A stretch of DNA of 64,000 bases from Nemertoderma westbladi. Taxonomy: Eukaryota; Animalia; Xenacoelomorpha. Positions within the stretch are counted from its first letter, which is position 1; every line of letters begins with the position of its first letter. The position numbers and the translations under genes were made by a program. Shown here one piece after another: positions 1,171 through 43,926 of the stretch. The notes under the pieces were generated by a model. That model worked only from the letters and a program-made list of their open reading frames with translations. It was not told the origin of the DNA and did no database searches. Where the stretch lies: positions 62,001-126,000 of the forward strand of contig JAUCBJ010002429.1 in the NCBI GenBank assembly GCA_032718475.1, read 5' to 3'.

Positions 1171-4071
1171 TGCAAACTCAATACGAACGGCAAAGAGTCA
1201 ATACGTGATGAATAAACTGTTTGAAGGTTTGGATATAATCTTTGTCCAGGAGCATCTTCTTCCCAAACAGGATATCCCCTTCTTAGATTTTCTTTCTAAG
1301 GACTTTGGTGTACGCGGAACCTCGCCGGTGGATCTCTCTAATGGTCCACTCCTTGGTAGACCCTATGGAGGACTTGCTGTGTTCTGGAAGAATGAACTGG
1401 TGAAATCGATCGAAGTAATCGACTCATCAGATCCTCGGTACCTCGCCATTAAGATATCCGATGAATTCGGAGATGATATAGTGCTAATTAATGTATACCT
1501 CCCTTATGAATGCCAAGGGAACTATGACGAGTACATCGAGTTTCTGGGTAAACTCCAAGCTCTTATCGACACACTTCCTTTTAGTAAAATTTTTATAAGC
1601 GTTTAAGCGTTTATAGGCGACCTTAATGCCGACCCGTCAAGGGCATTTTATACTTAATTAATGGATTGGTTCATTGAGAATGGATTTGAGGTTCTGGATA
1701 TATCATCATTGCCCTCCAACATGTTCACGTACGTAAACCCGCTGTACAAGTGCACTTCCTGGTTGGACCACTGCATTGCATCCCTGTTGCTGAAGCCATT
1801 AATTGGCGACATAACTGTTAGCTACGACGCGTCTTTTTCAGACCATATGCCAATTTCATTGGAACTGGATATTAAGTGCGACACTTCTACAGGTCCAGAA
1901 TGTGGGACCCACACAAATCCAACACATAAACCTATCTGGGAAAAGGCGTCCAGCGCTGACTTGGCGAACTACAACTGGGTTGCTGCTGAGAAAATCGCGG
2001 GAATTAACTTGGACGGGACTGTTTAAGTTGTAAAAACGCAACGTGTACGGTTCACCGGGATAACTTAGAACAATCTTATTTCGATGTAGTGTCGGCTCTA
2101 AGGGAGGCGGCGTCGGAGACGTTTCCATGTACCGGTAATGGTAAACAAACCAGCCCTCCATCGATACCGGGATGGAATGATTCAGTCAAGGATCTTTATC
2201 GTGAATCGCAAGAAGCCTTTCTACAGTGGAAAGAAGTGAACAGCCCCCACTCAGGCCCGCAGCACGATAACATGGTTCAGGCTAGGGCGCGTTTCAAGTC
2301 TGCGTTTAGGCGCTGCAAACGCGAGGAAGAATCTTTTCACTCAGACAAACACGTAGAAGCACTCGCGACTGGCGATACGTATACTTTTTGGGCGAATATT
2401 AAGCGAGAATCTCAGTACCATAGCTCACCCCCATCTTAGGTTGGAAGGGGCTGTTGGATTTGGTAATATAGTAATAGTAATATATTAGTAATTTTTTTTA
2501 ATTAGTAATATATTTACTTCGGTGCCTAGTAAAATGGGTATATTTGAAACAGATCCATTTATTGGCGACTTTTTTAGAATAACGTTTAGAGGGACGTTAC
2601 ACGTTAAGCAGGAGTTTGGTCAGCTAAACCACAAATTCAGTAGATTATTTTTTAATAATGAAATGATTTTTAATGTTGATGAAATATCAACTGCTACAAG
2701 GTTTTTAAAACAGCATAAGTCCACAGGTGATGACGGTATTTTTGCCGAACACATTGTTCATGGTCCTCAGGTTTTAGTTATATTTTTATCACTACTTTTC
2801 ACTTCATTTAACGTGCATGGTTTTTTACCTAAATGGATGATTTCCACAATTGTGGTTCCAATCGTGAAAGATAAGACTGGTGACAAATCTGATAATAATA
2901 ACTACAGGCCTGCTATTAGCACTACTTAGCTAGTATTATCAGTAAATTGTATGAAATCATAATACTATCTAGGATTGAACACTATTTATTTACAACTGAT
3001 TACCAATTTGGTTTTAAGCAAAAACTGGGTACCGAAACGTGTACATACTCCCTTAAGGAGGTTATTACTTACTATTTGCTTAATGGGTCTAATGTTTACG
3101 TAGCGTTTTTGGACGCCACTAAGGCATTCAACACCGTTGATTTGACTATTCTTTTTACCCGCCTTTTTGAACGCGGCATTCCGTTGTTTATACTTAGAGT
3201 TCTTTTGTTCTGGTATCAAAATCAGGTTATGTTCGTTAGATGGGATGGTGCTTTTTCGAAACAGTTTAATCGAACAAACGGCGTATTGCAAGGCAGTATT
3301 TTGTCACCAAAATTATTTACTGTTTTCATTGATGGGTTTAGTAGAGAGTTAGCTAATTCGGAGTTAGGCTGCCATATTGATATTTGTTTGAATCATTTGC
3401 TTTATGCTGACGATCTTAGCTTGATGAGTACATCGCCAGTTGCACTTCAGCAGTTATTAGATATTTGTGTAAATTTTGCAAACCGTAATAACATTAAGTT
3501 CAATCCTAAGAAGTCTAAATGTATAATTAAGTATAGTGGTTATAGGAAACATTCTAGAACATGTACGAATTTCACATTAGGCGGTAAAAAACTTGAAATA
3601 GTGAACAAGTTTAAATATTTGGGGTATTATATCACATCAGATTTTTCTCATGACGTAGATATTAAAGCCCAAACCAGGTCACTGTATTCACGTGCTAATA
3701 TTATAATTCGTAAATTTAATAAGTGCAGTAAATCGGTTGAACTTAAACTGTTCAATAGCTACTGTTGTAATATTTATTGCAATGCATTATGGGCCGATGT
3801 TTACTACAGTCAACAAATATTTAATAGCCTCAGGGTGGCCTTAACTAAATCTGTTAGGAAACTGTTTGGATATAGCAGCTATTGTAGTGCTAGTGAAATG
3901 CTAGTCACTCTAGGAATACGATCGGTTGTCCATACACCGTTTTGCTTTACACCGTTTATTCTCACGAGTATCCACATCAACGAACGTCGTTATTCGTGCT
4001 GTCCGAGATAACTGTTTGTCTCAATCTGAGATGTTTAAGTCGTATCGCCGTTTACAGGTAGAGCCGAATTA
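1112..4071 (+). pseudogene. LINE ORF2 (APE endonuclease + reverse transcriptase), several stops and frameshifts
   Basis: APE: SYNANS, FVQEH, GRPYGGLA, INVYLP, GDLNAD, SWLDH, SDHMPI. RT: NNYRP, QFGF, FLDATKAF, GVLQGSILSPKLF, YADD, FKYLG. Confidence 0.93.
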
Positions 4072-13328: not shown

Positions 13329-14468
13329 CGTAATTAACCGGTTATTTTCCCTTAAAGTACTCTGTAGTTGGTTTACCAGGCATAAAAAGGCCGTGTCCTT
13401 ACTGTACTGGTGTTTTAGAGGACATAAAAGTCATTTCTTCTGTATTTGTACTTTAGAGGACATAATCCGCAATCTCGTGACGCGATAAGCTAGATACTCT
13501 TGAAAACAGTGTCGCTACCATGACGACGGCTAACAGCTGATATTGCCACGTCGACATTTCTTTGTTTCTTTGTTCTCTCGTTGTTCGGTTGACCAATCAG
13601 AGCGTTTTTTGACTCTGTGTTGGAGTTGGATACAGAAACTCAGTAGTTCAGTGTTATTTTTTTGCCCAGAGCCTAAGAACATCGGCTTTTGGCACCTCCG
13701 TGTTTCAGTCTTTAGTTTAACATTAGTAGGCTTAATTATACAACGTATATCTGTTAACAAATCATACCAAACTTATCTTACTCAACAAACCTAATCATAC
13801 CTTAACTTTACTGCTTTTACTGTCGGTTATTCATTATATTGGTTGATGAAATATTATATCGGAATACTGATCAATAGTCAGATACCCCACCTTCTTGATA
13901 TACTAAAGGTTAGAGAGACCGGTTACAGATAAACGATTGCGACCTATGTTAAGTGGTTTGAAGTGAATCTAATGCTATTTCATATGCCCGACATAAATTG
14001 TATGTTGCTCTCTTTATACGTGACCAAATTTAATGAAGGTCGGCAGATTAGTGTGCAGTATTGTGCAGCATTGTGTATGATTGTAACTGATAACAAAGCA
14101 TCTCCTAAAGAATGCGCCATATACGTGAATCTATAGCCTTTTCGTTGTGTCTAGTTTAAGTCATAACTCTGTTTACATATTTAGAGCGCCACGTCCTAAA
14201 GGAACTGTTAATATTTCCCGAAAGTGAATAATATTTGTCAGAGATTATATATTACGATCAGTCGAATAATACGGTAGGCTTACACCATCAATCATTAAGC
14301 TTCCGAATTCAGTCTCCCGGGTATATCCAGCGGGTGAATGATTGCGCATAGACTGGCTTCGGCTAATGTAGTGTATCAAATACTCGTCATAAGCTAAAGA
14401 ATATATATCATCTAAAAGACATCCTAATTTGGCAGGTTAAACTGTCAAAGGTCTTAAAAGCGCAAACA
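13329..14468 (+). repeat. 5' LTR of element A (first 14 bp missing)
   Basis: Matches 44589-45728 at offset 31260 with about 3 substitutions seen by eye; ends ...GCGCAAACA. Confidence 0.95.
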
Positions 14469-14645
14469 ATAACAGATATTTGGTTCTGATTGCGGTGTAG
14501 GCAATAAATACAGTTTAATATTGTTTTGGTAAAAACAATAACAGATATTTAGTTCTGATTGCGGTGTAGGCAATAAATACAGTTTAATATTGTTTTGGTA
14601 AAAACAATAACAGATATTGCTTCTGGATTGCGGTGTAAGCAATCT
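14464..14645 (+). repeat. Three ~70-bp tandem copies of the LTR-end/PBS segment of A
   Basis: AAACAATAACAGATATT(tgg/tag/gct)TTCTG..ATTGCGGTGTA repeated three times. Confidence 0.85.
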
Positions 14646-16044: not shown

Positions 16045-16582
16045 TGTGACGGGATCCAAGAGGGATCCCGATTTATCCGGTTGTGGTAATTTAGTCCACG
16101 CGTCCCCGCCGTGTATAAGGATGAAATAAAGTGACTGAGTTCTGAAGTTCGGTGTATAATAGGAGGTTATAAGATATAGATATGTTGTGAATGTGTACAA
16201 GGCGGGATACGGTAACTAAAGTCCCGTGATCCCCTAACTAAACTAATTGGCTGTACCCTACGCTAGCACTGCTGCACTGGTATAACTGAATCACTGATTA
16301 ATAGGTTATTGGTTATATTGCACGGTGGCCTTACTGCTACTCAATCGATGCCATTCCCCCCTCTGATTGGTTAATACCCTTGTTGGCGCCCCGTGGAGTA
16401 TTCCCGTTCACTCCACCTGTTCTCCTTGGGTTAGGGGTTTGGCCCCTGACCCTCTATTGTGTGCTTCCTTCCCATTCTTATTGGGATGGCGCGAGTTGGT
16501 TAATTACCCAATCTCGCGGCTCCCAATATTGCTTATCGGCTAATAACTTTATGGGGTGTTGGCGGGATTGAATAAGCTAACA
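16045..16582 (-). repeat. 3' LTR of element B
   Basis: Direct repeat of 29186-29723. Confidence 0.97.
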
Positions 16583-17240: not shown

Positions 17241-19094
17241 TCATGTCGGGCCGATCGCGCTCACCTCGTCCTTCGTCCCAAGCGATCTCCGCGGTCTATG
17301 GAGTCGCTGGTAGGCGAACTTCTCTACGTTGCTCTCCCTGTTTACGTCGATCTCTCCGCCCCTCTCGGGCATCGTCTCCCCGAATACTATCCGTGGTGCC
17401 GTCCCCGGTTGCTCGCCCAACCTGATGGTGCTCCCCGCGAAATCCATCGCCGGCTCCTCGTGCACCCAGGTCCGCTTGCCGGATCTGTTCCAGAAGGCCC
17501 TCGCCCCACTGGCCGTCACCACCCTTCCGCCAACCCAGTCCGTGTCCGAGTGGCCTATCCTTTCGATGGGCGGCATCTCTCCGAACTCGTCGTCGTCGTC
17601 CTCCTCTTCTGGTAGTGTCTCCAACCCCGGTATCCCGATGGATCCACTATGTCCCTTTCCGCCTTGGCTCTCGCCCGTAGCTCTCCATCCCTCTAGCTCC
17701 CTTAACTTCCTTGGCGGTTGGTCGCCCTCGGCGCCCGCTGGTATGGGCATCGTTTGCAACCCCGACGTCGACTGTTTCGGCGATCCCACCGTCCATCCCA
17801 ATTCTCGCCCTAGAGACTCCCCCGAACTCCCCGACGAAGTCCAATGAAGTTCGTCTAGGCCCGCCTGTTCCTCAAAGCCGTAACTCTGTGCCCTGGCCTC
17901 CTCTTCCCTCTCCTCTGCTTCTATCCTCTCCCGTCTAGCGACTTCTTCCAGTCGCTTTGCTTCCCGTCTATCCATCTCTAGCTGCTCCCATCTCTGATAC
18001 GGTGTATCTGTCTCCCCATCTACCAGATGTCGGCTGTTGTAGTACACCGACTCGCCCTTCAGCCCCGGGTGGTCTACCAGACCGTCAAAGGCCGTCTTAA
18101 AGGCTCTCCTGTAGCTTAGGGGTGATCCCGATAACAGAAATGCCCCTGGTTCTCTTTCGATAACTACGGTCATGAATAAGTTAAGTAAACTTATCATCAT
18201 CCAGTCCTCCTGCAGGATATATCGCTTCTGATATACCTTTATCGCTCCTCTGCGAAACTGATATACCTCCTGCTTTCCCGGTCTCGCTCCCCACTTCAGC
18301 GAGTTCGCTAGTTCTGCTCCGTATTCTTCCCTAAACTTCCCCCAATCCATTGGCTTGTGGCATACGAGCCCCAATAATTGGCCCATCGCCACCGCCCCGC
18401 ATTGGCCTAAGTTCTCGACCACCCCCAATCCATCTGGTGCCGTCATAGCCATAAAGACTTTCTGCATATCCAGGAGGTTGGTGGCGTCCGGACCGATGAT
18501 CCTCTCCGCGTCCTCGCGAATCGCCGATCCCACTTTCGTCGTCGACTTCTCTCTTACTAAGACCTGTACCGCTTTCGGCAGTCGGTCTAATTTCGGCCCG
18601 TCCTTCTTCCCATACGTCCCTAAGTCGAATAAGAAGATGTCCCCATTTGGCGCTGCCAAATGTAAGAGTATGGTCCTGGCCGACCCTGCCGTTCCTCGTC
18701 TCGAACCCGCTTCGTCTTCCACGGTTCCCTCGTCATCTAGGATCATATATCCTCCTCTGTTGACGGACTCTATGAATCTTTTCCAGTCCTTCCTCGGCGA
18801 TTCCCTCGGATACTTCGGAATCCCGAACTTCGCCTCGTCTCCTTTCACTACGTAGTGGAAGTGTTGGAAGATCGCGTTGTCCAGCGACGGCGTCCCGTAG
18901 GTCCCGACCAACCGCTGTTCGTGCGCTTCCCGGAAGTGATCCTGCAGCGCTCGTGCCGCGTGACCCCTTTCCAACCTCTCGTAGTATCCTCTCGTCTTCT
19001 CCTCCGGGTGTCTTTCGGTGAAATCCACCAATATTTCTTTTCCTCCTGACTCCGCCTTTCTCTTCCTGATCAGCTTACTCGCCATTCCGAACAC
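17241..19094 (-). CDS. ORF3 of B: DEDDy-fold (WRN/EXD2/RNase D-like) 3'-5' exonuclease with acidic low-complexity tail, 617 aa
   Basis: ExoI YMILDDEG; ILLHLAAPNGDIFLFDL; LPKAVQVLVREKSTTKVGSAIRED (ExoII); NLLDMQ; YQKRYILQED (ExoIII). First ATG likely gives MASKL (~19085). Confidence 0.8.
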   Translation of the reverse strand: MFGMASKLIRKRKAESGGKEILVDFTERHPEEKTRGYYERLERGHAARALQDHFREAHEQRLVGTYGTPSLDNAIFQHFHYVVKGDEAKFGIPKYPRESPRKDWKRFIESVNRGGYMILDDEGTVEDEAGSRRGTAGSARTILLHLAAPNGDIFLFDLGTYGKKDGPKLDRLPKAVQVLVREKSTTKVGSAIREDAERIIGPDATNLLDMQKVFMAMTAPDGLGVVENLGQCGAVAMGQLLGLVCHKPMDWGKFREEYGAELANSLKWGARPGKQEVYQFRRGAIKVYQKRYILQEDWMMISLLNLFMTVVIEREPGAFLLSGSPLSYRRAFKTAFDGLVDHPGLKGESVYYNSRHLVDGETDTPYQRWEQLEMDRREAKRLEEVARRERIEAEEREEEARAQSYGFEEQAGLDELHWTSSGSSGESLGRELGWTVGSPKQSTSGLQTMPIPAGAEGDQPPRKLRELEGWRATGESQGGKGHSGSIGIPGLETLPEEEDDDDEFGEMPPIERIGHSDTDWVGGRVVTASGARAFWNRSGKRTWVHEEPAMDFAGSTIRLGEQPGTAPRIVFGETMPERGGEIDVNRESNVEKFAYQRLHRPRRSLGTKDEVSAIGPT

Positions 19095-19589
19095 TACACT
19101 CGCTCACCTGCAGGGTGGTGCCTTACCAAGGCGCAATACAGATGAGTGATGTATTGAGATGTTTCCTACAGTTCGATAATGGCCTACTTTTCTACTTAAC
19201 TGCGCCTTTCAAGCTTAATTTAATCTAATTAATTTCGGAGCTAGTAAATCAACCTAATTTACGATTTCCGTCCGTTACTTTTATTATGTTCTAGAACGAC
19301 TTTCCTTGTGTTACCACTATTTTCGATTTTTTTTTAGCCCTATTCTATTTACTTATTTATTTTGCTTTGATTCTACTGTCCTACTACTTACTACTGCCTA
19401 TGGATTTATTCTATTCTCTGATCCATATTCTGGCCTACTCAGTGGGCCTATGCAGTACAGCAGTATGTGTCGTGTGGCCACACGATTTATCCAGCTGCAC
19501 TCATATGCCCCCCTCTCACTACTAACTTTACTTACTGCTATCTAATATCTATATCTTATTTTTACCCCTTTTACCTCTTGCTCTCTCTC

Positions 19590-20573: not shown

Positions 20574-23500
20574 TTAAGGTGCCCCTTCTAGAAGACAGCA
20601 TTTACCTACTGCTCTCCTGTAGGTTTTTCTGTCTTTCGCACCTATCTTTCCACCTATCCGCACTTCTACCGAACGGACTCTTCCGTCCTCATCTGAGTAG
20701 GTGCCTACAACTCTCGCCAACCGCCATTGGTTGTTGATGATAGTATCATCCGTGACGATTACGAGATCTCCCTCTCTCAACTCCCTGTTTGGCTTCCTCC
20801 ACTTGCTTCGCTTATGGAGCGTTGGTAGGTATTCTTCTACCCACCTCCTCCAATACTCTGCGCTAATTGCTTTAGCTACTTTCCAACTTTGGCGGGAGTG
20901 TATATCATCTGGGTCTACACCCCGCATATCTATGGTCGCTGGCCTTTCCATCAGGAAATGGCTAGGCGTCAACACGTCTAATGACTCAGGGTCATCATTC
21001 TCCGGGTATAGCGGTCTGCTATTAATGATCCCCTCGCACTTTGCAAGTACCGTCCGTAAGACGTCTTCAGTGACCATGTGGGTGTTCATCAGCTTCGTCA
21101 TTAGACGTTTCGAACTGCCCACCAGTCTTTCGACGCATCCTAGTGTATGTGGTGCGTACGGCGTCCGTCTCTCCCACTTCACTTGTCGTCTTCTCATGGC
21201 CGCCCTGACTTCTTCTCCCTCCAAGATGTCTAAGGCCTCTGCCATCTCACTCTCTGCGCCCACAAAGTTGGTGCCGTTGTCGCTGTATATCACTGCGATC
21301 GTCCCACCTTTGCGGTCCCTAAACCTTTCTAAGGCGTTAATGAAGGCTGATGCGGTTGCATCTTGGGCGAGTTCTATCCCTACCGCCCGCGTATTGTTGC
21401 ATACGAAGATAATACCGTAGCGTTTCTCCGTGTGTCGCATCACCTTGATCTTTATCGGCCCGAACATGTCCACACCGCAATGCGTAAATGGCGGGTCGTG
21501 CTGTCTTACCCTACTCGCCGGTAGTGGCGCCATCTCCTGTACGGCTCGCTCCTTCTTCGCTCGTCGGCAGGTCTGACACTGTCCCACTACCGCTTTCACC
21601 TTCTTCCTTAATTGTTTGACCCAATAGGTCCTCCTTATCTCTGTGAGGGTTCGGTTGGTGCCCCCATGCAGTATCGATTTGTGGGAGTCCCATATGATCT
21701 GGTGGACTATAGGCGATCCTGTGGGAATGATGATGGGTTTCGGTGGCACGACTATACTGTTGTTATATCCCACCCTAGAATTCATTACTAGGATCCCATC
21801 CTCGTTGAGTTGTGGCGACAGCGTGATCAACTCGCTATCCCGTCGGAGGTGCTGTTGGTTACCGACACGTTCCACCTCGTCGCCGTAGTTCTTGCGTTGT
21901 TCATAGCGGATCACTGCCTTGGCCGCTCCTTCCAGATCTATGGTTGTCCTGGTCTTCTTGTCCTTGCCGACTCCCGCAAGGAAATTCCCAAAGGCTCTCC
22001 AGTACGCCACTAGTTTCTTGGTCTTATACCAACTAGAACTGTAGCTGAGGAGTTTATCCGTCGGGTTATCGCACAGTTCCCTTCCTGGTTGCACGTCCCT
22101 GATCTCCCTCACCATCTGGGAGTATATCTCTTCTCCCTCTGAATCTCCCTCTTCTCCTTCTGATACTACTTCCGAGCCCGGGTCCACCTTCCTCATCGGC
22201 GGCCAGGCCTCCCTATCGCTCAGAAATTGTGGCCCGTGTTGCCACAATGCTTCTTTCTTTAAGAAAGTGTGGCGTTCCACGCCCCTCGACAGCAAGTCCG
22301 CTGGGTTCTCGTCTGTTGGGCAGTAGTGCCACCTTTCCAGTTCTGTGCTCGCCCTTATTTCGTCCACTCTATTCGCGACGAATATCGGGTACCTCGTCTT
22401 TTCGTTGTGTAGCCAACCAAGCACTACCATGGAGTCCGTCCAGTAGTGTGTCTCCACTATGTTGGGAATTGTATCCACTAGGTAGGCTGTGGCTCTAACT
22501 CCTAGTCTCGCGGCTGTCAATTCTAACTTGGGAACAGATGCTGAATCTGGCGGCGTTGACTTAGCTTTGCTAAAGGCTAGTCTGGGCTTGTGAGGCCCCT
22601 CTCGTTGTACTAAATAGAGTGCCGCTCCGTATGCCTCTAACGACGCGTCGGAGAACATATGTAGGTCCAGATTCGTCATGTTCCCGTCCGGGAAATACAC
22701 TCGCGGCATGTTGTATGTTCCCATCCTCTCCAAGTCTCCTGTCCATTTGCTCCACTGTTTCTTGATGTCTTCTGGTACCTCTACGTCCCACTCATCCTTC
22801 AACTTATATACTCTCTTGAGTATCTGTTTCCCCGTGACTAGTAATGGGGATGCTAGGCCTAAGGGATCGTATATCCTTGCTATATACGATACGTAACCCC
22901 TCTTCGTATGGGTGTCTGCGCCCTCCTGGCTCAGCTGATACTTCAGTTCGTCTGTTTTTCTATCCCACACGATTCCCAACGCCTTCTGCTGGGATTCCGT
23001 TCTCTTAATCGCCATGTCCTGTCCTTTGGCTGTTGTAGGGTTGTCCATGGTCGATTCTGGTTTCTTGTCTTCTATTTCCCTGATAAATTCTTCTGAACTG
23101 GATTGGAATTTGGTCAGGTTGAAGCCGGATCCTTTCAGGATGTCGCGAACCTCGCGCCCTGTTTCCAGTATCTCCTCAACCGTATTTCCAGACTCCATGC
23201 CGTCGTCTACGTAGAAACCGCGTCTGATCATGTCGACGGCCCTACTGCTATATCTATCTTCCTTGCCCTTTACCGTGTCTCTCACTGCCATAGTCGTCGT
23301 AAATGAGGACGACTTGGCCCCCATATTTTGTACTACCATCTTATACGCTGGTATTACCGGCGGTTCTTCTTCGCCGTTATACCATAAGAAGCGTTGACTG
23401 TCACTATCTTCTTCTGTTACTCGGACTTGGTTGAACATGCCTTCTATGTCACACGTGAAGGCGTGTTTCCCATTCCTAAATCTAAGTAGTACTTCTATGC

Positions 23501-25784
23501 CCGAATTGTATATGTTTGGGCCCTCTAGTAGGTAATCGTTTAAGCACTTTCCGTCGGTCTTTGCCGATGCATCGACTACCATCCTAAGTTTACCTTTCTT
23601 TGGGTCTAAAGCTACGTGGAGTGGCAGGTAGTATGTCCTGTCCGTGTTCGGTTCGTCGACCGGTAACTCCACGGCCCATCCTTTCTCGACGTACTTCTTA
23701 ATGGTTTTGTGAATGTACTCGTTCTTCTCGGGGCTCCGTTGTAGTGTTTGTTTCAGCTTGCGGAGTCTCGTGAGTACCATCCCTCTATTATCGGGTAGCG
23801 GTATCTTCGGTAGTTTCCACACCATTCCTATTGTATACCGCCCCTCATCACACGTCATCGTTTCCTCCACACTTTGTAAAGCCTGCTTGTCTTCTACCGA
23901 GGTCCCGACTCCGGTCTCTTTCAGTCCCTCGAAGTCCTGCCTGAGCAGTCTTTTAAGCTGCTCCTCTGCTCCCTCGTCACCCATTTCCTGCATTGTTCCC
24001 GCGAACATGCATCCTGATGTCTCCGACATCCTGAATGGTATCTTGCTCTTAATTGGACCACTCAGCGTCCACCCGAATGGCGTTAATATGGCCACCGGGT
24101 CGCTCTGCTTGTCTTCGCCGAAGACCGTTTGCATTCTCTCGTGGGCCGTTGGGCAGTCCATGCCTACTATGATGGATACCTTCCTAACGTCCACGTTTGG
24201 GATTGAGAAGTCAATGTTATCCAGGAATTTGTATTGCTCGACCTCGATGTTGGTTGGCCGCCTGGCATTGATGTTAATTGACTCTATTACTTGGATGGGG
24301 TCGATGGTTGCCCCATAATCGCATCCTGGTGCCACTGCTGCAATTGCGCACCGTCCTGTCCTCATCTCTAGGATCTCGTCTTTACTAGAGATGGTTGTCA
24401 CCGCCATCCTGCTTGGCCTCGTTCTCAACCCTATTTCTTCGGCTACCCATTCCTCAACTAATGTGAAGGCAGCTCCACTATCAACCAGCATTAGTGTTGT
24501 TACTGATCGATTGCCTTCCCCGATCACTCGTACTGGTACTACTCCAAGTAGCACTGTTCCTCTCTTCTTCGCCCCTATTGTGCTTGTTGCCATCGTCTGG
24601 CCTCTCCTTTGGCCAAACTTGACCGGCTTCTCTTGGCATTCCCTGGCCTTGTGTCCACTCTTCACACATCGCGAGCAGATTTTATTGCTCGACGCGTAAT
24701 CTATCTGGTCTTGCCTCGGTAGCGCCTGCCAGTACCTGCAGTTCATGGTTTTATGAAGCGCATTTGCGTGTAACTGGCATTTGCTCTTTGGGTCATAGCC
24801 CTCTTTATACAATGCATTGCGTATCGCAGTTATATTCGTACCAAAGTCCCTACTATTCTTATTGACTGGGTTTGACCTACTGGACGTACTGGGGTTATGT
24901 TTATTCATGTTGTTATTGTTCCCCTGTCCGTCCCTTGATGTTGTCTTATCTTCGCTTGTCTGTGGACTTGCAGTCCCCTGCGTCGCTGCATATGGCAATG
25001 ATTGCCTGAGTCTCGGTAACGCGTTCGATGTATTGTGCTCTGGTTTGGGCCTGTAATGATCTGTCTTTGGTCCCTTTCCCAGGCTATCTTCACTATAAAC
25101 TGGGTCCGTTATTAGTTCAGCCTCGTAATTTAAGAAGTTTGACATTTCTTCTAAACCTGGTTCCGCACCCTTCTTGTCTCGGGTGGAGAAAGCGACCTTC
25201 CTCCATTTGTTGCGCAGCCAGCTCGGTAGTGCCTGCGCTATCGTGGTGATGTTATTGGACGCGTTGAGTTCGTATGGCGCGTCTAACGTCTTCAGCACGA
25301 TCAGCGCCTTCTCGACTTTGTTAGCAAACGTCTTAATGCTAACGGGATTATCCTGTAGGCCACCCGATGTTATGCCTCTCAGCGTCTGCCTGATGATCTT
25401 GGCCGGGTGCCCGTATTCCCTATCCAGTGCCCGCCATGCTGTCGTGAAGCCGCCCTCTATTCCTTGGTATTGCCTCACGATATCGTATGCTGGGCCTCCC
25501 GTGTACACTTGTAGATACTTTAGGCACTCCGCCTGCGTCAAGTTTTTTGTTAGTATTTCGTTACTATACATTCGCCGAAACTGTAAGTATTCTTCCGGCC
25601 TGCTCCCATCGAATTTGAACGGTTCCACGGGTGGTAATTCGATCCTCGTTTTCAACGCATCGATCAACGTGGCCATCCCCATTGCCTGCGCTTCTAATGG
25701 ATTCGACGGGTGCTGTATAGTTTCCCTTGTCTGGTGCGGTTCGTCCGTCCTATTTCTTGATCTTCTCTGACTCGGATATGTCAT
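20574..25784 (-). CDS. BEL/Pao gag core-protease-RT-RNase H-integrase of B, 1736 aa
   Basis: FKFDG..EY..F gag core; CSRCVKSGHKAREC; LVDSGA; FYVDDG; HMFSDAS; NPADLLSRG; H..H..CQTC; GVDMFGP; SDNGTNF; ERLVG. Confidence 0.96.
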   Translation of the reverse strand: MTYPSQRRSRNRTDEPHQTRETIQHPSNPLEAQAMGMATLIDALKTRIELPPVEPFKFDGSRPEEYLQFRRMYSNEILTKNLTQAECLKYLQVYTGGPAYDIVRQYQGIEGGFTTAWRALDREYGHPAKIIRQTLRGITSGGLQDNPVSIKTFANKVEKALIVLKTLDAPYELNASNNITTIAQALPSWLRNKWRKVAFSTRDKKGAEPGLEEMSNFLNYEAELITDPVYSEDSLGKGPKTDHYRPKPEHNTSNALPRLRQSLPYAATQGTASPQTSEDKTTSRDGQGNNNNMNKHNPSTSSRSNPVNKNSRDFGTNITAIRNALYKEGYDPKSKCQLHANALHKTMNCRYWQALPRQDQIDYASSNKICSRCVKSGHKARECQEKPVKFGQRRGQTMATSTIGAKKRGTVLLGVVPVRVIGEGNRSVTTLMLVDSGAAFTLVEEWVAEEIGLRTRPSRMAVTTISSKDEILEMRTGRCAIAAVAPGCDYGATIDPIQVIESININARRPTNIEVEQYKFLDNIDFSIPNVDVRKVSIIVGMDCPTAHERMQTVFGEDKQSDPVAILTPFGWTLSGPIKSKIPFRMSETSGCMFAGTMQEMGDEGAEEQLKRLLRQDFEGLKETGVGTSVEDKQALQSVEETMTCDEGRYTIGMVWKLPKIPLPDNRGMVLTRLRKLKQTLQRSPEKNEYIHKTIKKYVEKGWAVELPVDEPNTDRTYYLPLHVALDPKKGKLRMVVDASAKTDGKCLNDYLLEGPNIYNSGIEVLLRFRNGKHAFTCDIEGMFNQVRVTEEDSDSQRFLWYNGEEEPPVIPAYKMVVQNMGAKSSSFTTTMAVRDTVKGKEDRYSSRAVDMIRRGFYVDDGMESGNTVEEILETGREVRDILKGSGFNLTKFQSSSEEFIREIEDKKPESTMDNPTTAKGQDMAIKRTESQQKALGIVWDRKTDELKYQLSQEGADTHTKRGYVSYIARIYDPLGLASPLLVTGKQILKRVYKLKDEWDVEVPEDIKKQWSKWTGDLERMGTYNMPRVYFPDGNMTNLDLHMFSDASLEAYGAALYLVQREGPHKPRLAFSKAKSTPPDSASVPKLELTAARLGVRATAYLVDTIPNIVETHYWTDSMVVLGWLHNEKTRYPIFVANRVDEIRASTELERWHYCPTDENPADLLSRGVERHTFLKKEALWQHGPQFLSDREAWPPMRKVDPGSEVVSEGEEGDSEGEEIYSQMVREIRDVQPGRELCDNPTDKLLSYSSSWYKTKKLVAYWRAFGNFLAGVGKDKKTRTTIDLEGAAKAVIRYEQRKNYGDEVERVGNQQHLRRDSELITLSPQLNEDGILVMNSRVGYNNSIVVPPKPIIIPTGSPIVHQIIWDSHKSILHGGTNRTLTEIRRTYWVKQLRKKVKAVVGQCQTCRRAKKERAVQEMAPLPASRVRQHDPPFTHCGVDMFGPIKIKVMRHTEKRYGIIFVCNNTRAVGIELAQDATASAFINALERFRDRKGGTIAVIYSDNGTNFVGAESEMAEALDILEGEEVRAAMRRRQVKWERRTPYAPHTLGCVERLVGSSKRLMTKLMNTHMVTEDVLRTVLAKCEGIINSRPLYPENDDPESLDVLTPSHFLMERPATIDMRGVDPDDIHSRQSWKVAKAISAEYWRRWVEEYLPTLHKRSKWRKPNRELREGDLVIVTDDTIINNQWRLARVVGTYSDEDGRVRSVEVRIGGKIGAKDRKTYRRAVGKCCLLEGAP

Positions 25785-25896
25785 CGGGGGTAGCGGCCCC
25801 CTCCATATGTCTGTATCACACGACCTGTTTTCATCTAGGGGTCTCGTTGTTCTTGTTCCTGTCGGGGTATATTGTTGATATTGTGATGGGGGAATG

Positions 25897-28800
25897 TCAC
25901 CCTGTCCCCCCCCCCACCGGTATGTCTGGTACTGGGGTTGATGTTAATATGTTGGGGCCCATACACCTATCCGCAATAATTCCCCCCTCCCCTGGGTATA
26001 TGTTATGTCCCTGCATGCTGTAGTCATACTGCTGTGCTGGTACCGGTATAGGCCTATCAGCTTCTGGCCTACTCGCCGGTATGTATTCCGCGACTTCCGG
26101 GTTTAATCCCGTTGTCCGCGCTATCCTATCGCCTACATTGCCTCTCTCAGTATGGCCTACGGTATGTGCAGTAAGACCTACAGTATGCCCTACAGTCTGC
26201 ATGTGTTGCTCGGGATCGAAGTTTATTCTTCTCGAATAATCCTCCCCGCGGCTACCGTATTCTCGATCGGTAGGTATATTCCGTCGGAAAGTTTCTCTAC
26301 GACCCCCCTCTCCACTGTTTTCATCTTCGTACCGGTACATCGCGTACCCCTCTCTCGGCGTGTAATGCGTCTCACCGGATCGTATCCCTCCGGGGCGACG
26401 GCAATCTCCCGGAGTCCGACCCCATTGACTCTCCGTTCTCATCTCGACTACCGACGGCTCGCTGTCCGTCCTCGCTCTTCTATCGTTTGCGGCGATACTT
26501 CTACTACTGTCTTCCTCTCTTCTCCTATCAGTGGAATATTCCCGCTCACGAGATCTCTCGTCGACCTCCCGGTTAAACCCCACTGTTCTTCTTTCCTCCT
26601 CTGATCGGGCTCGACGCTCCGTCTGCCCTCCCGCGACGTCAACCTGTCCTTCTCTGCTCGATCGCACGTCGCCGGGGATACTCGCAGTCCCCCCATTACT
26701 CTCCGTCGCCGGTTGTTGCGGTTTACCTTGTTCGGCCCTCGCATTGTCCGCTGACGGCTGTGGGACACTCTCTGCCCCCCCCCTCTCGCCGCTAACTTTC
26801 TGTTGTGGGGTGCTCGTAGCCCCCCCCCACTCGCTACATCTAACTTCGCTACCTCTCTCCCCACTATTATATACCTCTCTAGTCGACACATCAACCCTAC
26901 CACGGTCGGGTCTGTTCACCCCCGCCTCTCCCTCTGCTATTGCGTGGCCTTCCAGGCCCTCTGCTCCCTGCCTACCAACTACGCGGCCTACCAGGCCCTC
27001 TGCTCCCTGTCTACTAACTACGTGGCCTACCAGGCCCTCTGCTCCCTGTCTACTAACTACGTGGCCTACCAGGCCCTCTGCTCCCTGGTTACGTAGGCCC
27101 GACGTGTCTACACTAATAGCACCCATATTGGAAACGGAATTAATTTGCTCATTTGAAACAAAATCATTTGTATTATTCTGCGCGACTACGTTATCTGAAT
27201 TATTTTGTAAATTCGGGCTAAAATCATTATTTGAATTATTCGAATTATTCTGTGTAATTGCGTTATTTAAGTTATTTTGTAGGTCCGAATTCGAGTTATT
27301 ATTTTGATTATTTGAATTATTTTGCGTAACTACATCAATATTAGGATTATTTTCTACATTAACACTGGGGTTGTTCTGATTTAAATTTAAATTACTGCCA
27401 CCAGGCAAAGTATTTCCTGTAATAAAGGTTTGATTAGCGTTATCCCATACGGTACTATTAATATCAACAACGTCTACTGTACCATTATTATTATTATTAC
27501 CCCCCCCGCTCGTACGGTCGCACCAGTCTTGAGTCTGTCGTGCGGTCCCTGTCAGTGGAGTATTAACAAATACGTCTACGGCCCTTGGCTCCTCAAAAAT
27601 ACTCGAGCCGGCCCCCCTTTCAGACGGCGGTCCCACTTGCACGTATTCCAACTCGTGCGTCCCTCTAATTATATCTTTCGCATACTCACTCTGCCGTTCC
27701 TTTAATTCCCTATGCTCCCTTTCACCCTTTGCCACTATCCCCTCACGCTCCTGGGTGTCCTTGATGGCCGAGTCTGCGGCACTCTTAATGCTCTCCCTTC
27801 GTCTCGCCCCACGCTCCTTACGTTCCTCTTCCTTCCTCGCCTCACGCTCCTTGCGTTCCTTTTCCTTCCTCGCCTCACGTTCCTTGCGTTCCTTTTCCAT
27901 TTTCGCCTCACGCTCCTCGCGTTCCTTTTCCTCTCTCGCTTCACGCTCCTCGCGTTCCTTTTCCTCTCTCGCTTCACGCTCCCTACACTCCCTTTCCTCT
28001 ATCTCATCATACTCCCTTAGGCTTTTCAAAGCCCTTTCGGCCCTTTCTCCGGTTTCTCTAAGCAATACCGTTTCCCTCTCTAACCGCACTCTTCCCTCCT
28101 CTAGCCGTTCCTTCATTTCTCTCTGACCTTGCTCTGCCATGCTGAGACGGTATGTGACTCCTATTTTTCTCACCGCTCTTTCTTTCGCGGAGGATGTAGC
28201 AGACTTATCGGTTACGACGGACTTCCCTCGCCTTCCCGACCTACTAGCTTTCTCCCCCTTTTCGGAGCTTTCTCCGACCGACGAGGCCGAATCCTCGGTG
28301 TTAGCCTCGGATTCGCCCTCCTCAGGTCCCTTCCAACCCACTGGTTTCACTCCCCGGGCATCGACCAAGTATGGCCCTATGTACACTGGCGCTACGCTAG
28401 GTCCCATACTCCCACACTCCCATAGTTCAAACAGTTCGCCGGCTATCCTTTTTGCTCTCTCCCCGGCCAGTTTTCTCTGCTCAAAACGTATTAGGTAATT
28501 TAAGTGTTTATCCGACTCACCTAGTCGCTTTCTCAGTCTCACCTCGTCTACCTTCGCCCCTTCCTTCTTGGCGTCGTTTATCAGCTTCCGGGTCGCGTTG
28601 TAGGCCCGTCGAAGTCGCTCAGAAACCCCGACGTCCTCGTCGCCGACCTCTCCTCCGTCCCTCCGGGTTCGACGTCGTACCGGCGGCTCCACCGTCGCCG
28701 TTCCGGTGGGCCGTCCGTCGCCCTCGGCCTGTAGCTGGCCGGCGACATCGGTACCGATCTCTCCTCCGTCTCTTCGCGTCCGGCGTCGCACCGTCGGCCC

Positions 28801-29106
28801 CACCGTCGCCGTTTCGGTGGGCCGCCCGTCGCCCTCGGCCGGTAGCTGGCCGGCGACATCGGCGCGCCGTTCTCCCTCTCGTGTCGACTCGCCTCCATCT
28901 CCCTCCATCTCGCTCTCTTTATCCTCCGGCTCGAGTCCCTCTCCTCTCAACTCGGGTTCTGATTCCAGACGGTCCCCCTCGTCTTGGACTTCCGGGTCGC
29001 CCGTTACCGATGGCTCCGGCGTCGTGGGCCTATACCGCCTGGTCGCGGCCTCGCGGATCGTTTGATCTTCGTCCGGGGTCCGCGGTGTCTCGCCCGATTC
29101 ACTCAT
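25897..29106 (-). CDS. N-terminal gag extension of B (charged, coiled-coil and Asn-rich), 1069 aa; probably continuous with the downstream ORF
   Basis: Long ORF just after the 5' LTR. Removing one G from the G10 run at 25906-25915 puts it in frame with 25784..20574 with no stop. Confidence 0.85.
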   Translation of the reverse strand: MSESGETPRTPDEDQTIREAATRRYRPTTPEPSVTGDPEVQDEGDRLESEPELRGEGLEPEDKESEMEGDGGESTREGERRADVAGQLPAEGDGRPTETATVGPTVRRRTRRDGGEIGTDVAGQLQAEGDGRPTGTATVEPPVRRRTRRDGGEVGDEDVGVSERLRRAYNATRKLINDAKKEGAKVDEVRLRKRLGESDKHLNYLIRFEQRKLAGERAKRIAGELFELWECGSMGPSVAPVYIGPYLVDARGVKPVGWKGPEEGESEANTEDSASSVGESSEKGEKASRSGRRGKSVVTDKSATSSAKERAVRKIGVTYRLSMAEQGQREMKERLEEGRVRLERETVLLRETGERAERALKSLREYDEIEERECREREAREEKEREEREAREEKEREEREAKMEKERKEREARKEKERKEREARKEEERKERGARRRESIKSAADSAIKDTQEREGIVAKGEREHRELKERQSEYAKDIIRGTHELEYVQVGPPSERGAGSSIFEEPRAVDVFVNTPLTGTARQTQDWCDRTSGGGNNNNNGTVDVVDINSTVWDNANQTFITGNTLPGGSNLNLNQNNPSVNVENNPNIDVVTQNNSNNQNNNSNSDLQNNLNNAITQNNSNNSNNDFSPNLQNNSDNVVAQNNTNDFVSNEQINSVSNMGAISVDTSGLRNQGAEGLVGHVVSRQGAEGLVGHVVSRQGAEGLVGRVVGRQGAEGLEGHAIAEGEAGVNRPDRGRVDVSTREVYNSGERGSEVRCSEWGGATSTPQQKVSGERGGAESVPQPSADNARAEQGKPQQPATESNGGTASIPGDVRSSREGQVDVAGGQTERRARSEEERRTVGFNREVDERSREREYSTDRRREEDSSRSIAANDRRARTDSEPSVVEMRTESQWGRTPGDCRRPGGIRSGETHYTPREGYAMYRYEDENSGEGGRRETFRRNIPTDREYGSRGEDYSRRINFDPEQHMQTVGHTVGLTAHTVGHTERGNVGDRIARTTGLNPEVAEYIPASRPEADRPIPVPAQQYDYSMQGHNIYPGEGGIIADRCMGPNILTSTPVPDIPVGGGTG

Positions 29107-29185
29107 CTCGTCTGCTCGGTGGAGTTCGACTAGCTAGGGTGGAGTTCTTTGAGTTTAACTAGGGCGGCAGCTCGGTTTTAGTTAC

Positions 29186-29723
29186 TGTGACGGGATCCAA
29201 GAGGGATCCCGATTTATCCGGTTGTGGTAATTTAGTCCACGCGTCCCCGCCGTGTATAAGGATGAAATAAAGTGACTGAGTTCTGAAGTTCGGTGTATAA
29301 TAGGAGGTTATAAGATATAGATATGTTGTGAATGTGTACAAGGCGGGATACGGTAACTAAAGTCCCGTGATCCCCTAACTAAACTAATTGGCTGTACCCT
29401 ACGCTAGCACTGCTGCACTGGTATAACTGAATCACTGATTAATAGGTTATTGGTTATATTGCACGGTGGCCTTACTGCTACTCAATCGATGCCATTCCCC
29501 CCTCTGATTGGTTAATACCCTTGTTGGCGCCCCGTGGAGTATTCCCGTTCACTCCACCTGTTCTCCTTGGGTTAGGGGTTTGGCCCCTGACCCTCTATTG
29601 TGTGCTTCCTTCCCATTCTTATTGGGATGGCGCGAGTTGGTTAATTACCCAATCTCGCGGCTCCCAATATTGCTTATCGGCTAATAACTTTATGGGGTGT
29701 TGGCGGGATTGAATAAGCTAACA
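29186..29723 (-). repeat. 5' LTR of element B
   Basis: Direct repeat of 16045-16582; several CCAAT boxes on the minus strand. Confidence 0.97.
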
Positions 29724-30482
29724 ATTTGTAATTAAATTTTTGTGTTTATTTAGAGATTGTAATCTCAACCAGAATTGTACGTAATTTGTAGTATTAAGTA
29801 ACTTAGTTAAATTAGAATTATTTGTTTTAGTGTCCAACAAGTAGCACTCCACTGAGAGCGCACAGCTTATGTGTAGTGACTCCCCCAGAAATAATAACAT
29901 TTATTTCAACATTGACAAAAACCCATTTCAACGGGTATATATATATTATAAATCAACTCAAACGATTTATAAATAGTAGGCCTGCCATACAACAATTAGG
30001 TCTCAATATCAGTTGGACTACTGCTTAAATAACGGTAATAAAGTAAGTTAAAGTAACCAAGTAACCCTTAAAATTCAGAAATTCAATTATTTAAAATAAT
30101 TGATATACCGGTATTTACAATAGGCTTATTATCTTTATTTTCATAAACTTAGGCTGAAATCATACCGGTATTCTGTAATTAATTTTAGTTAATAATTATA
30201 CTTATATATACTATAAGTGTAAACTGCATACCGGTATCCACGATAGGCCTATTATATATTTATATATTTGTGCTGAAATCATACCGGTATTCTGTAATGA
30301 ATTCTAGTTACTAATAATACTTATATATACTATAAGCATACCGGTATTCTAATATTATATATATATCACGCTACACTGAGTAGCAGTATCGGTAATTAAT
30401 TACTAGGTTAGCAGTTAATGCTGAATTACTAGACTTGCTTAGACTGTAATATAGCAGTAGGCATTCAACTGTGTAAACAAAC

Positions 30483-33400
30483 ATGTCTGATACTAAGCAG
30501 AACCTGTCAGACAGTTTATTAGATGCAACTATTTGCGACTCAGATAAGGGTGTAGAACCGTCTACACCTAAGTTCAGTTCACCTCCCACTGTGAGGAAGG
30601 TCATCCCTCCAGTAGTAATAACAGAACCTAGGCTGGTCCAACACCATAGGTCTATCATAGGCACTCGAGCCCAGGTCAAGCGGGACCAAGAAGCAGCGGA
30701 ACAGCAACAACCCGCGAGCCAAGAACTTATTTCTCAGCGGCCCAACAGCTCCAGTAGTGAGGATACTGTAGAGCTGACACCCGAGCGCGGAGCAAAGATG
30801 ACGGATGCGGTTTATTCGGATCCCCTTCTCATCCTTCCTGCAGCCGTACTCACTAGGATATTGATCGCGGTGGAAGAACACCAGATCGATTGGGCGAGAA
30901 GTAAGCGATCGACTAAAGATAGTTATGCGGGATACACAAAGGAAGAACTGAAATCTATTGTCGAGTCGCAATGGAACTTCCCCGGACCCGGACTCCCGTT
31001 TGATTTATCAGAAGCTGCCTGGGAAGACATACACCGGATGGGAGTAGCCAAGGAAACCATCGATCCAGCTGTGTGGAAGAGGTCCGCAGCCGGATACGCA
31101 CAGGGATTCTTCAGCTCTATGGAGCGAGTAAAAGAACAACTGTTTCAACAACCTCAAGGACCTCAAGAGCAGGGACAACTGCTTTATCAAGTTAGAGAAA
31201 GAATTCTGCGAATTAGGCTAATCTTATCGGCCTTTGAGGAGGCTTCTAAAAGAAGACAAGACACGTCGTTGCAAGTTGCCGTAAAGACTTGGTTTCAACG
31301 GGTGAGTCTCCAAGTTCAAGGAACGGCTCAGTGGAAAGCTCAGCTGGAGGAGCGCTCAACCCATGGAGAATCAACAGACGCTACTTTTTCCCAAGTGGAA
31401 AGTGAAGCGACGGCAGAGAACCCGCATAAGAGGGATGCCATTGATATCTATCTGTCAGACTATCAACGTTTCTTAGGTGATGAAGAGTTGAGGAGAAGGT
31501 TGGATGGACTTAACCCTAATAGTGAAGGAGCACAGCGTGTGCTTGACGCCATCGACGTGGATAGGTTAGCGGCGAACCAAGCTAAATTCGATGAACGACT
31601 CCGCATCGCTAGAGACCAAGAAGAAAAGGTGAAGAAAAAACGCATAGAAGACAGAAAGAAAGCAGCAGTAGCAGCTGCAGAAGCCGAAAGGAAAGCAGCC
31701 GAAGAGGAAAGTAAAGCAGCCGAAATGGAAAGAAAAGCGGCCGCGGCAGAGGCAGAAGCGAAAAGAAAAGCGGCAGCGGCAGAGGCAGAAGCGAAAAGAA
31801 AAGCAGCCGAAATGGAAAGAAAAGCGACAATGGCAGCGGCAGAAGCAGAGCGGATAGCGGCTGAAGAGATCGCCCAATTAGAATTGGAAAATATTCAGGA
31901 GAATCAAGACTGCATAAATAAACAGTTAACAGCTAGTAATATGCAGATGATGAATCGATCTACTCCCAAAAGACAGGGATATACATCATCTGAGGAAGGC
32001 GATACCACCGATACTGAAGGCAAAGGAAATAGATCTCACCTAAGCAGACGTAAAAGAACATCCCACCGTCAGAAATTGCCTGATTTGCCTCCAGCTGTTA
32101 GAAGGCAACTAAATAACACCAACTTAGGTAGTACAGAACCCACAGACCAAATAATTACAATAGAGAGACTCCCTACTATAGTAGATGAGCCTGAAATAAT
32201 TAGGCCTGTTCCCGAAGCCACCCTTTCGGTGGTAGAGACACCTGTACTCCCTGAACCTACCTCTAAATTCCCTTTGCACAGTACCAAGCTACCTGTGCCC
32301 AGCAGAACAGCCCATGAGACAGTTCATGCCCTGGACTCCGAGCGAAATATTCATGATTTGTCGCCCGTTGTCCCTCGTCCGCCCGCTACAACGTTGGCGA
32401 ATCCCGCTTCGGCGGTCGAATGGGTGGATGAGAGACGACGGGGGATGGATCTCCTGCTCGGACAGATGCAGGAGACCGTTCAGCAATTCAAGGGCACAGT
32501 AAGGGAAAGTAGGCTAGAGTTGCAAGAAGTGCAGCAAAGTATCGCGCTAGAACGCGATAAATTAGTAAATACACAAAAGGGTATACCACCACCCCCTGTA
32601 ACAATGTGTCAACCTGTTAGGTCTGAAGTATCTCATGCGCAAGGTGTGGAGCCTACACGCATCTATACTGCTAGCGAAGTAGAAACTCCTATAGTGAACC
32701 CTATTAAGGGTAATTATAGACCTGTTGATAATGATATTCCCTATAGACCGGATCATAATCCGAGAAATTTATATACCGATAACTCGATATTAAATAACAC
32801 GATGGCCCAAGAAAGTTTTACGCGTCAAATGGCTAGAACCGAAGCCCGGCAAGCGGTAAAGGTGGGAGAGATCGTCAAGTTCAATGGAGATGAGATGAAA
32901 TGGTTACCTTTTAATGAATATTACAAAGATAACATACAGAACTCTGTGCTATCTAATGGAGAGAAACTTAGATTCCTCATCGAGTGCTTGGAAGGATCTC
33001 CCAAGTTAATGGCGTTAAAGTTTATTGGACATCCAGACGGATTAAGACAAGTTTGGGATACACTAAACATCAGGTATGGTAATAGGAATAACATAGCTGG
33101 GTATTTGTATGCAAAGTTGGTAGCGCCCCGAAAGTTTATTAGCAGCGGAATTATAGAGTTTTCCGATGAGATTCAGGAGATCTGCAGACAATTAGATTGG
33201 CTAGGTAAGTCTCATGAGTATCAGAATGCTATGGTTATTAGAGCAGTGGCTTCTACTTTACCGAAGGGTGGAGTAGGTACACGCTGGGATAAGAAAGTGT
33301 TATATATGATGGAACAACAACGACGAGACCCTACCATGGCTGATCTCATGTCATTCCTAGATGGAGAAGTGAAATTACAGCTCCTAAAATTGTCCAGAGA

Positions 33401-36400: not shown

Positions 36401-38609
36401 TCTATACGCTACAGCCATCGGCCGGAATGTAACAGAACAGATCGACTATCCCCTGGAGAAAACTGTCTATTGGACCGACGCTTTACTCGTGTTGGAGTAT
36501 ATAACCAATGAAGTCTGTCAGTTCAGCGTCTTCGTTACCAACAGAGTAGCTATTATACTCAGTCGCACGACGATGGATCAATGGAGACATTGCCCCGGAA
36601 CGATTAATCCAGCAGACATCGCTTCCAGGGGAGCAACTCCACAAGAACTGGTAGATACTCCAGACTGGTTAGGTGGACCCGACTTCCTCTACCAAGAAGA
36701 AGAAGAATGGCCTCCTCATCTTACTACAGCAGAAATTAGACAGGCCAAGGGAGCGGAGAAAGTCAAACCTAAAACTCAGGCGAGTAAATCGTAGTTATTC
36801 AAACCCACAGTAGATCTGTCTGTACTACATACTTCCGGAGACGACGCTTTGGATCAGAAACCCACAGCCACAAATAAACCCATTGTGGAAATCCGTGATA
36901 AAGATTGGAAATCTGGCATACCAGACGTCTCGCAAGGACTCTCACCTCTTCTGCAGAGAGCGATGCATCACTACAGTTCCTGGAATCGGCTTTGTAAGGC
37001 CGTTACATATTTAAAGAGATGTTTTCACCATCACTACTCTGGGATGAAAACAAAGGGTGATACCGCTCCAATCACATCAGTGCAGGTCCATGTTATTAAA
37101 GACCTTCCCAAATATAAGGTACCCGACAAGTTTCTGAAGGAGAAGATCAGTTATCAGGAGCATGAAGAAACCAACAAACAGATGCTGAGACTCTTACAAT
37201 GCTATGAAGATTCCGATAAGTATTTCCTGTTGTTGAGAAATCCACAGATGCGCTTAAGGGATCGCTTCTCTAGCACAATGATAGATGGGTTGATACGTGT
37301 TGGAGGAAGATTAACGAACGCCCCAGTATCCTTTGACACTAAGTTCCCCATACTCATTAGAAATCTTGAAATACAAGTCAAGATGATTGTAGATGTTCAC
37401 AGCAAACTTTATCATGCTGGTAGAGAACGAGTTCTTAGCGAAATTCGAACTCGCTATTATTTTTATAAACCCCGTAGAGCTCTGAACCAAGTTCTTAGGA
37501 ACTGTATACCCTGTAGGAAATCATTCAGTAGGCCTTTAACACAGAGAGAGGCATAATTACCTAGGGAACGAGTAAGCTTTTATGAACCACCCTTTACTAA
37601 TACCGGTGTGGATTTATTTGGCCCTATTGAAGTATATCGTGCTAGGACTATAGTCAAGAGATGGTGTGTAATCTTTGTTTGTATGACTTGTAGAGCCATC
37701 CATCTCGATATGGTGAACGATTTATCTACCAACAGCTTTCTATTAAGCTTATGACGACAGATCGCTCGCTTTGGCACTAGTAACACGATGAGATCTGATA
37801 AGGGAACAAACTTCATTGGTGCCAACAATGAAATCAAAGCTTACGTCAAAGATTGGAACCAAAGACAGGTGGACGACCAACTACGAGTAACAGCGTCTAG
37901 TTGGACCTTCAACGCCGCCGACACCCCTTGGTGGGGAGGAAGTTGGGAGAGATTAATAAGAAGTGTGAAGACAGCATTTCATTTTATAGTGCCTTGCCGC
38001 GCTTATCTCACCGACGAACTTTTGCGGACGTTGATGGAAGAAATCGCCGCCTATCTCAACGAGAGACCGCTTATGCCAGTCTCATCGAGTCCCGATTCCC
38101 TGGAAGCGCTAACACCCGCGCACTTCCTACTGAAGAAACCTGTAGCCATGCTCCCACAATCGGAAATCACAGACGGAGACGAATACTGCCGACAAACTTG
38201 GCAACTCATGCAGTTGTTATCCCGTCGTTTCGCTGACCATTTCGAAAAACATTATCTGCCCACGCTACAACTTCGAACTAAGTGGTTTGCGCAGCAAGAA
38301 AACGTCAGCGCTGGAGACATGGTTCTTATTGTGGATGTGGATCTTCCACGTAAGCGGTGGCAGACAGGTCGTATAATCGAGACGCACATCTCGGATGACG
38401 GTTTGGTGCGATCGGTAGAACTCGTCGTCATGCGACGTAACTTCAAGAAACCGGGAATTGTCTTCGAGACGCAGCAGCTCAATCGCCCAGTCGGTCGTTT
38501 ATGTTTACTGGAAAGAGACAGAGAACTCTCCGGAAACTATGGGAGACAAGATACTCTTCCCACGACCATCTCCCTAATCCAACAAATATCTAGGGACTCC
38601 CCAACTTAA
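30483..38609 (+). pseudogene. BEL/Pao gag-pol polyprotein of A, single frame with three in-frame stops (36792, 37554, 37752)
   Basis: VKFNGDEMKWLPF; three knuckles CALCDGTHRLNMC, CYNCLRQGHQRRTC, CAKCGAKHHILLH; LLDSGS; IYMDD; HVFGDAS; NPADIASRG; GVDLFGP; SDKGTNF; WERLIR. ORFs at 30483, 36849 and 37788 share one frame. Confidence 0.95.
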
Positions 38610-43921: not shown

Positions 43922-43926
43922 CGTCT

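Follow-up and report, generated by a model that had tools for sequence, protein, structure and literature searches.

Self-priming, the use of an element's own RNA to start reverse transcription, has been reported for the Tf1/sushi group of LTR retrotransposons and predicted for Tcn1 and TAR (PMC6317226). With Tf1, Tf2 and Tj1, and the Tf1/sushi Ty3/gypsy chromoviruses generally, the primer binding site (PBS) lies just past the 5′ LTR and is complementary to RNA of that same LTR, a site for tRNA is absent, and the core of the pairing is about 9-11 nt (PMC7175516, PMC10085805 and PMC4600332). In Tf1 the first 11 nt of the mRNA serve as primer, within a three-duplex pretzel structure. For Tcn1 of plants and for TAR (Houba/Osr-1, Ty1/copia), the prediction was from sequence alone, by a rule of at least 10 bp of complementarity starting 0-5 bp from the LTR (PMC6317226). 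Pertinent from another perspective are the gypsy-like Juno and Vesta elements of bdelloids, which have, between pol and the 3′ LTR, a third ORF that resembles RNase D-type 3′-5′ exonucleases and is a putative nuclease; the main text of their description (PMC5408684) mentions neither PBS nor tRNA. Neither do primer, PBS or tRNA occur in the main text of a survey of the BEL/Pao superfamily (PMC3118150). The literature searched, to which subscription papers mostly do not belong, yielded no report of self-priming in BEL/Pao. However, some of the Cer BEL/Pao elements of C. elegans reportedly have an RNase D-like exonuclease, and Cer7 is said to encode a primer-like RNA of its own; if these accounts are right, the novelty of both the exonuclease-like gene and tRNA-independent priming described below is lower.

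The window considered here, the whole stretch of DNA analysed, is 64,000 nucleotides of contig JAUCBJ010002429.1 from the xenacoelomorph Nemertoderma westbladi. It contains an element, A, on the + strand, within whose leader a second element, B, is nested on the - strand. For A, the first-pass annotation was right about the LTR end at 14468, and in need of correction about the extent of the repeat: the full-length copy is the 3′ one (44575-45728, 1154 bp, TG...CA, with a short purine tract directly 5′ of it), and the 5′ copy (13329-14468) is without the first 14 nt. Alignment of 13329-14469 with 44589-45729 gives 99.7% identity (3 differences), the LTR end reading ...GCGCAAACA at 14468/45728 and the one further base in common being the A at 14469/45729. 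Inspection of the flanks of the A LTRs revealed no target duplication. The LTRs of B (5′ copy 29186-29723, 3′ copy 16045-16582, both - strand; 538 bp, TG...CA) are without differences, and the element is flanked by a target duplication of 5 bp (ATTTG, + strand). Just inside the 3′ end of the B LTR there is a GGGATCC...GGATCCC hairpin (29190-29210) that is reminiscent of a U5 stem-loop.

Both elements have DUF1759, Peptidase_A17, Integrase_H2C2 and DUF5641 above the Pfam cut-off, the gag-PR-RT-RH-IN order that defines BEL/Pao, and BEL/Pao polyproteins as their best database matches; the chromodomain, by which the Ty3/gypsy chromoviruses of the Tf1/sushi group are recognized, has no Pfam match in either. 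The gag-pol of A (30477-38609, + strand) is of BEL/Pao type, with in-frame stops at approximately 36794, 37556 and 37754. The pol ORF of B (20574-25943, - strand), encompassing DUF1759, protease, Peptidase_A17, integrase and DUF5641, is uninterrupted, and its ORF1 (25897-29133, - strand) includes a low-complexity N-terminal gag region. Between pol and the 3′ LTR each element also carries a third ORF, an addition relative to the Tf1/sushi group. Despite these likenesses A and B are distant, with 35% RT/RNase H identity, and a tree that unites the two is rejected, at p-AU 0.028 with a simple model and long branches.

In A the 5′ LTR end is followed by a single A and then by the 10-mer TAACAGATAT (14470-14479, + strand), a putative PBS at offset 1, the exact 10-nt complement of which, ATATCTGTTA, is a putative self-primer core at 13747-13756 in the same LTR, with its 3′ LTR counterpart at 45007-45016. 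In B the putative PBS GTAACTAAA (29177-29185, - strand) is at offset 0 and has an exact 9-nt match to the putative core TTTAGTTAC (29353-29361, - strand). Both the A pairing and its likeness in arrangement, with unlike letters, to that in B had been pointed out in the first-pass annotation, and both were borne out. A site adjoining the LTR end and complementary to the element's own LTR is what characterizes Tf1/sushi elements, from which A and B differ in superfamily. Compared to the plant elements, where superfamily and host kingdom also differ, A has the duplex length and offset of the self-primer rule and B, with 9 nt, is one base short of it. That so similar an arrangement is found despite the distance between A and B counts in favor of self-priming. 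On the basis of their sequence A and B are both assigned to a contiguous self-complementary type: no splice junction in A yields a match longer than the contiguous one, the only candidate in B is a 10-nt match with a GC donor found under relaxed rules, and a primer built by splicing was rejected for both.

Chance matches in the AT-rich LTRs of A and B deserve consideration, and the comparison with dinucleotide-shuffled LTRs that had been proposed for A was informative. In 5000 shuffles A reached p 0.006-0.019 and B 0.005-0.010, the spread reflecting the offsets permitted, and in 400 shuffles that scored spliced matches as well the values were 0.025 and 0.0225, respectively. Individual values of about 0.01-0.025 leave room for chance, as do equally good antisense matches at 25 of 16,410 internal positions in A and 20 of 12,594 in B, and a duplex in A whose energy, with the 5′ LTR allele, is no lower than that of shuffles. 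However, while individually modest the two matches are jointly unlikely by chance since the product of their p-values, by simple arithmetic, is approximately 2e-4 to 6e-4. No more than 6-7 nt was obtained in cross-controls, where each site was set against the LTR of the other element, or in sense-strand controls. Further against coincidence, the 10-mer is retained in all three of the tandem copies present in A (at 14470, 14539 and 14608), and, as described below, the arrangement recurs in 11 relatives and is absent from the five tRNA-type ones. Chance as the source of both matches is very unlikely.

The tandem copies just mentioned comprise the LTR end and PBS region of A (14460-14642, + strand; 69-bp period), and the triplication could be a scar of mis-priming or strand transfer. 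Each copy is preceded by AAACA, which resembles the LTR end. They are also pertinent to the TGG at 14481. It was correctly said not to be kept, the corresponding triplets in the other two copies being TAG and TGC. Its offset of 12 compares with 1-7 in TGG-bearing relatives, and no GAT comes after it, unlike in the five tRNA-type sites of those relatives. In B there is no TGG near the LTR end. Neither element, then, has a TGG-initiated PBS near its LTR end of the sort used in tRNA priming, and no tRNA or Rfam RNA encoded within A or B was found.

One scan of metagenome contigs provided 80 BEL/Pao loci with which to compare A and B; no BEL/Pao relative turned up when viral contigs were scanned. 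A 5′ LTR end could be delimited in 16 distinct relatives, the loci not scored being 59 without a delimitable LTR end and five near-duplicates of scored families (L003, L009, L010, L062 and L070). Five of the 16 (L022, L035, L037, L047 and L063) have a TGG-type site, TGGTCC..., 1-7 nt after the LTR. They share the pol domain order of A, with 32-41% RT/RNase H identity, and differ from A and B in that none has a self-complement (p 0.19-0.93, 400 shuffles). All 11 of those without TGG have pairing with their own LTR (9-15 nt, offsets 0-5, p 0-0.02, 400 shuffles), in a set that includes the close kin L030/L071 and L004/L008, and where LTR boundaries were from LTR-pair alignments in eight of the 16 and partly by scan or by eye in L001, L012, L014, L024, L035, L037, L040 and L047, with the ends of L024 and L040, and in part those of L001, L012 and L014, fixed by eye once the match was known. 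In two of the 11, L001 and L024, the complement is contiguous as in A and B. In the other nine (L004, L008, L012, L014, L016, L030, L040, L044 and L071, the donor motif of L040 having been added post hoc) a complement of 9-15 nt exists only across a GT-AG junction within the LTR, which points to pairing at the RNA level. On the tree the contiguous and spliced types are interleaved. Two of the relatives with the spliced type, L014 and L016, have LTRs that end in TATA instead of CA.

Pairing with the own LTR and a tRNA-type site are, accordingly, mutually exclusive among the relatives, and from this comparison the sequence signature that suggests self-priming is well supported. The part of the first-pass interpretation that saw such a signature in the self-complementarity is strengthened thereby (11 of 11 relatives without TGG versus none of five with it), and the part that invoked an exonuclease is not. 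That A and B self-prime in one way or another, be it as Tf1 does or with trimming by an exonuclease, is quite likely. Priming from their own RNA in the style of Tf1, with the ORF3 exonuclease probably not assisting, is the account favored here, though with some reservation. On such an account, the transcript would begin at the core or somewhat upstream of it, its 5′ part would fold back to pair with the PBS, and cleavage within the RNA, immediately 3′ of the core, would free a 3′-OH for the RT to extend into U5; the equivalent cut in Tf1 requires the RNase H of RT. Because the primer would be copied in plus-strand synthesis, it and the PBS would stay matched while their sequence drifts. ORF3 would be an accessory gene, as with the DEDDy ORF3 of bdelloid gypsy elements.

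Is the duplex instead real but structural, with a role in leader folding, dimerization or packaging, and does a host RNA prime at a non-canonical site? In favor of this, A retains the TGG at 14481, and in B the pairing reaches a second helix, beyond what a primer needs (below). Against it, pairing always starts 0-5 nt from the LTR end and segregates from TGG sites (11 of 11 versus none of five), and the features of the A triplet given above, like the absence of a TGG from B, also speak against a host primer. A structural duplex combined with priming by a host RNA is considered unlikely.

Relevant to where transcripts may start, the CCAAT box that had been noted near 13593 in the A LTR is indeed there (13593-13597, + strand), and its context, ACCAATCAGAG, is also in the B LTR. 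The LTRs of A and B are otherwise unalignable apart from one other shared feature, a double initiator-like motif, TCAGT-NN-TTCAGT, with the same spacing in both (13640-13652, + strand, in A, where it is a candidate start site; 29425-29438, - strand, in B). It fits the initiator consensus quoted in PMC3601003. The first-pass annotation had instead predicted a start at about 13747, which is where the A core begins. Its position about 100 nt upstream of the core in A and about 70 nt upstream in B counts against a simple Tf1 model, as in Tf1 the start is at the core itself.

Folding of B in cis from four assumed starts gives the core helix a predicted pair probability of about 0.8-0.95, with 0.6-0.7 for the terminal pair. 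A second, upstream helix of 13 bp, two of them G-U, is predicted between the LTR (29373-29385, - strand) and the leader (29164-29152 in pairing order; 29152-29164, - strand), and both helices have probabilities near 0.9 in cis. The extension of the B duplex beyond the core beats 96% of other LTR windows, which is marginal (0.04), and the layout of core plus second helix differs from the three duplexes of Tf1. For A, 713 nt separate core and PBS, a distance over which folding is unreliable, and the first PBS copy has a predicted probability of pairing with the core of 0.07 at most in cis. This too counts against the simple model, though the core is predicted to prefer PBS copy 2 or 3, with values of up to 0.92-0.94 when the start is placed at 13738-13747. 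The A duplex gains 5-6 bp if position 13741/45001 carries the 3′ LTR allele and not otherwise, and none of 60 shuffles is as stable as this longer form. An extended duplex in A was nonetheless discarded as a candidate feature: with the core held fixed it is not significant (0.11 for the 3′ LTR allele and 0.77 for the 5′ one). A U5/leader helix in A, at -24.9 kcal/mol, is also not below shuffles (0.40).

The ORF3 genes call for separate comment. That of B (17241-19103, - strand) has an RNase D/DEDDy-like 3′-5′ exonuclease domain near 18120-18830. In A, ORF3 (40220-44496, + strand) has an exonuclease-like domain near 42320-43114 and Cys/His motifs, and continues out of frame at 43864-44496. A third, internally deleted A-like remnant at 53188-54841, in which a protease region 39-55% identical to that of A is joined to the ORF3 end, has the A ORF3 tail and the 43864-44496 ORF in one frame, and so these are probably one gene that is broken in A. 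The ORF3 products of both elements look RNase D-like. Language-model features place the domains with PF01612 clusters (Atlas 0.94 for B and 0.92 for A), PF01612 being on 34% of the members of the B cluster, and the top-ranked unnamed cluster looks alike for the two (213 aa, 81 members). The A protein has weak RNase D matches (TIGR01388, E=0.018; another, E 0.046). Pfam gave no match for either domain, and neither PHROG nor NCBIfam gave one for B ORF3. The whole ORF3 proteins have no significant BLASTP similarity to each other (E 0.12), and their domains align at 25%. DEDDy exonucleases are defined by the motifs ExoI D-x-E, ExoII D and ExoIII Y-x-x-x-D; A and B both have D-x-E, D and, as the last, Y-x-x-x-E versus the Y-x-x-x-D of ExoIII. 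Single-sequence structure models were unusable (pLDDT 33 and 36). A protein search found no homologs of the B domain, and among the shorter proteins searched there were none of the A domain; a lone match from the homolog searches, in 50% representatives, was repetitive and set aside as spurious, and PDB sequence searches returned nothing relevant.

What might such an enzyme do? In an alternative form of self-priming the primer would again be the element's own RNA, with ORF3 producing its 3′ end. Either a short transcript of the LTR or the R region at the 3′ end of the genomic RNA would anneal to the PBS, and the exonuclease would shorten the unpaired tail as far as the duplex. Besides the motifs common to the two ORF3s, three LTR features would suit this scheme. 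Directly 3′ of the core A has a tract that is predicted to be unstructured and has 1 G in 60 nt (13757-13816, + strand), and that of B (29352-29293) is nearly unstructured with 3 G in 60 nt, the binomial p-values of 5e-5 and 3e-4 being for a feature picked out post hoc in two elements from a single host genome; the B tract ranks only among the lowest 10% within its own LTR, and one of the 11 ORF3-less relatives has a weaker counterpart (L040, p 0.026). AATAAA and ATTAAA are absent from the A and B LTRs, which was also noticed post hoc in the same two elements, and one or other is downstream of the core in 7 of the 11 self-complementary relatives. With initiation at the upstream initiator-like motifs, 70-100 nt of R would be available for strand transfer. 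A role in 3′-end processing has, moreover, been suggested for the bdelloid DEDDy ORF3s (PMC5408684), to which those of the BEL/Pao elements A and B are likened by description.

The relatives argue otherwise. Searched by tblastn, the 80 loci gave no match to the ORF3 of A or B, and in none of the 11 self-complementary ones is there an ORF3 or room for it between pol and the 3′ LTR (the gap, measured in all of the 16 scored relatives but L047, is 31-582 bp, and the longest stop-free stretch is 99 aa). An exonuclease is therefore not needed for the self-complementary arrangement in BEL/Pao generally, and whatever priming mechanism is involved works elsewhere without ORF3. Neither the proposed link through co-occurrence nor the trimming of the self-primer by the exonuclease is supported, no ORF3-bearing element with a 5′ LTR other than A and B was found, and the nuclease activity of ORF3 is itself putative. 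Maturation of a self-primer by ORF3 is accordingly unlikely for A and B. There is correspondingly little probability that they represent a BEL/Pao lineage in which a dedicated accessory enzyme forms the primer, ORF3 trimming the G-poor tail of an LTR RNA paired to the PBS, in which event BEL/Pao would, with the contiguous and splice-built primers of the relatives, have at least three tRNA-free priming designs.

If the self-priming signature is broad in BEL/Pao, it would carry self-priming to a third LTR superfamily and account for BEL/Pao elements in which no PBS is detectable, a point of importance to annotation tools that depend on a tRNA match. With A and B the contiguous type gains two deep-branching members, and as one of them, B, has intact ORFs and identical LTRs, its start site and primer junction are directly mappable. 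They offer, too, a concrete test of what a retrotransposon DEDDy ORF3 does, the comparative data arguing against a required role in priming.

Other features of the window are of lesser relevance. Two diverged copies of a repeat (55378-56254 and 60024-61111, 67-88% identical) flank a 30-bp tandem array and are a candidate LTR for the third remnant; considered as a third test case, the pair was put aside as it has no 5′ LTR-PBS junction. Upstream of that remnant an insertion at 52380-53045 with GGGGTACACCATTTT inverted ends is probably a non-autonomous DNA transposon. Pfam matches identify an ORF with a Fibrinogen_C domain at 48443-51026 and a separate RVT_1 ORF at 2920-4011.
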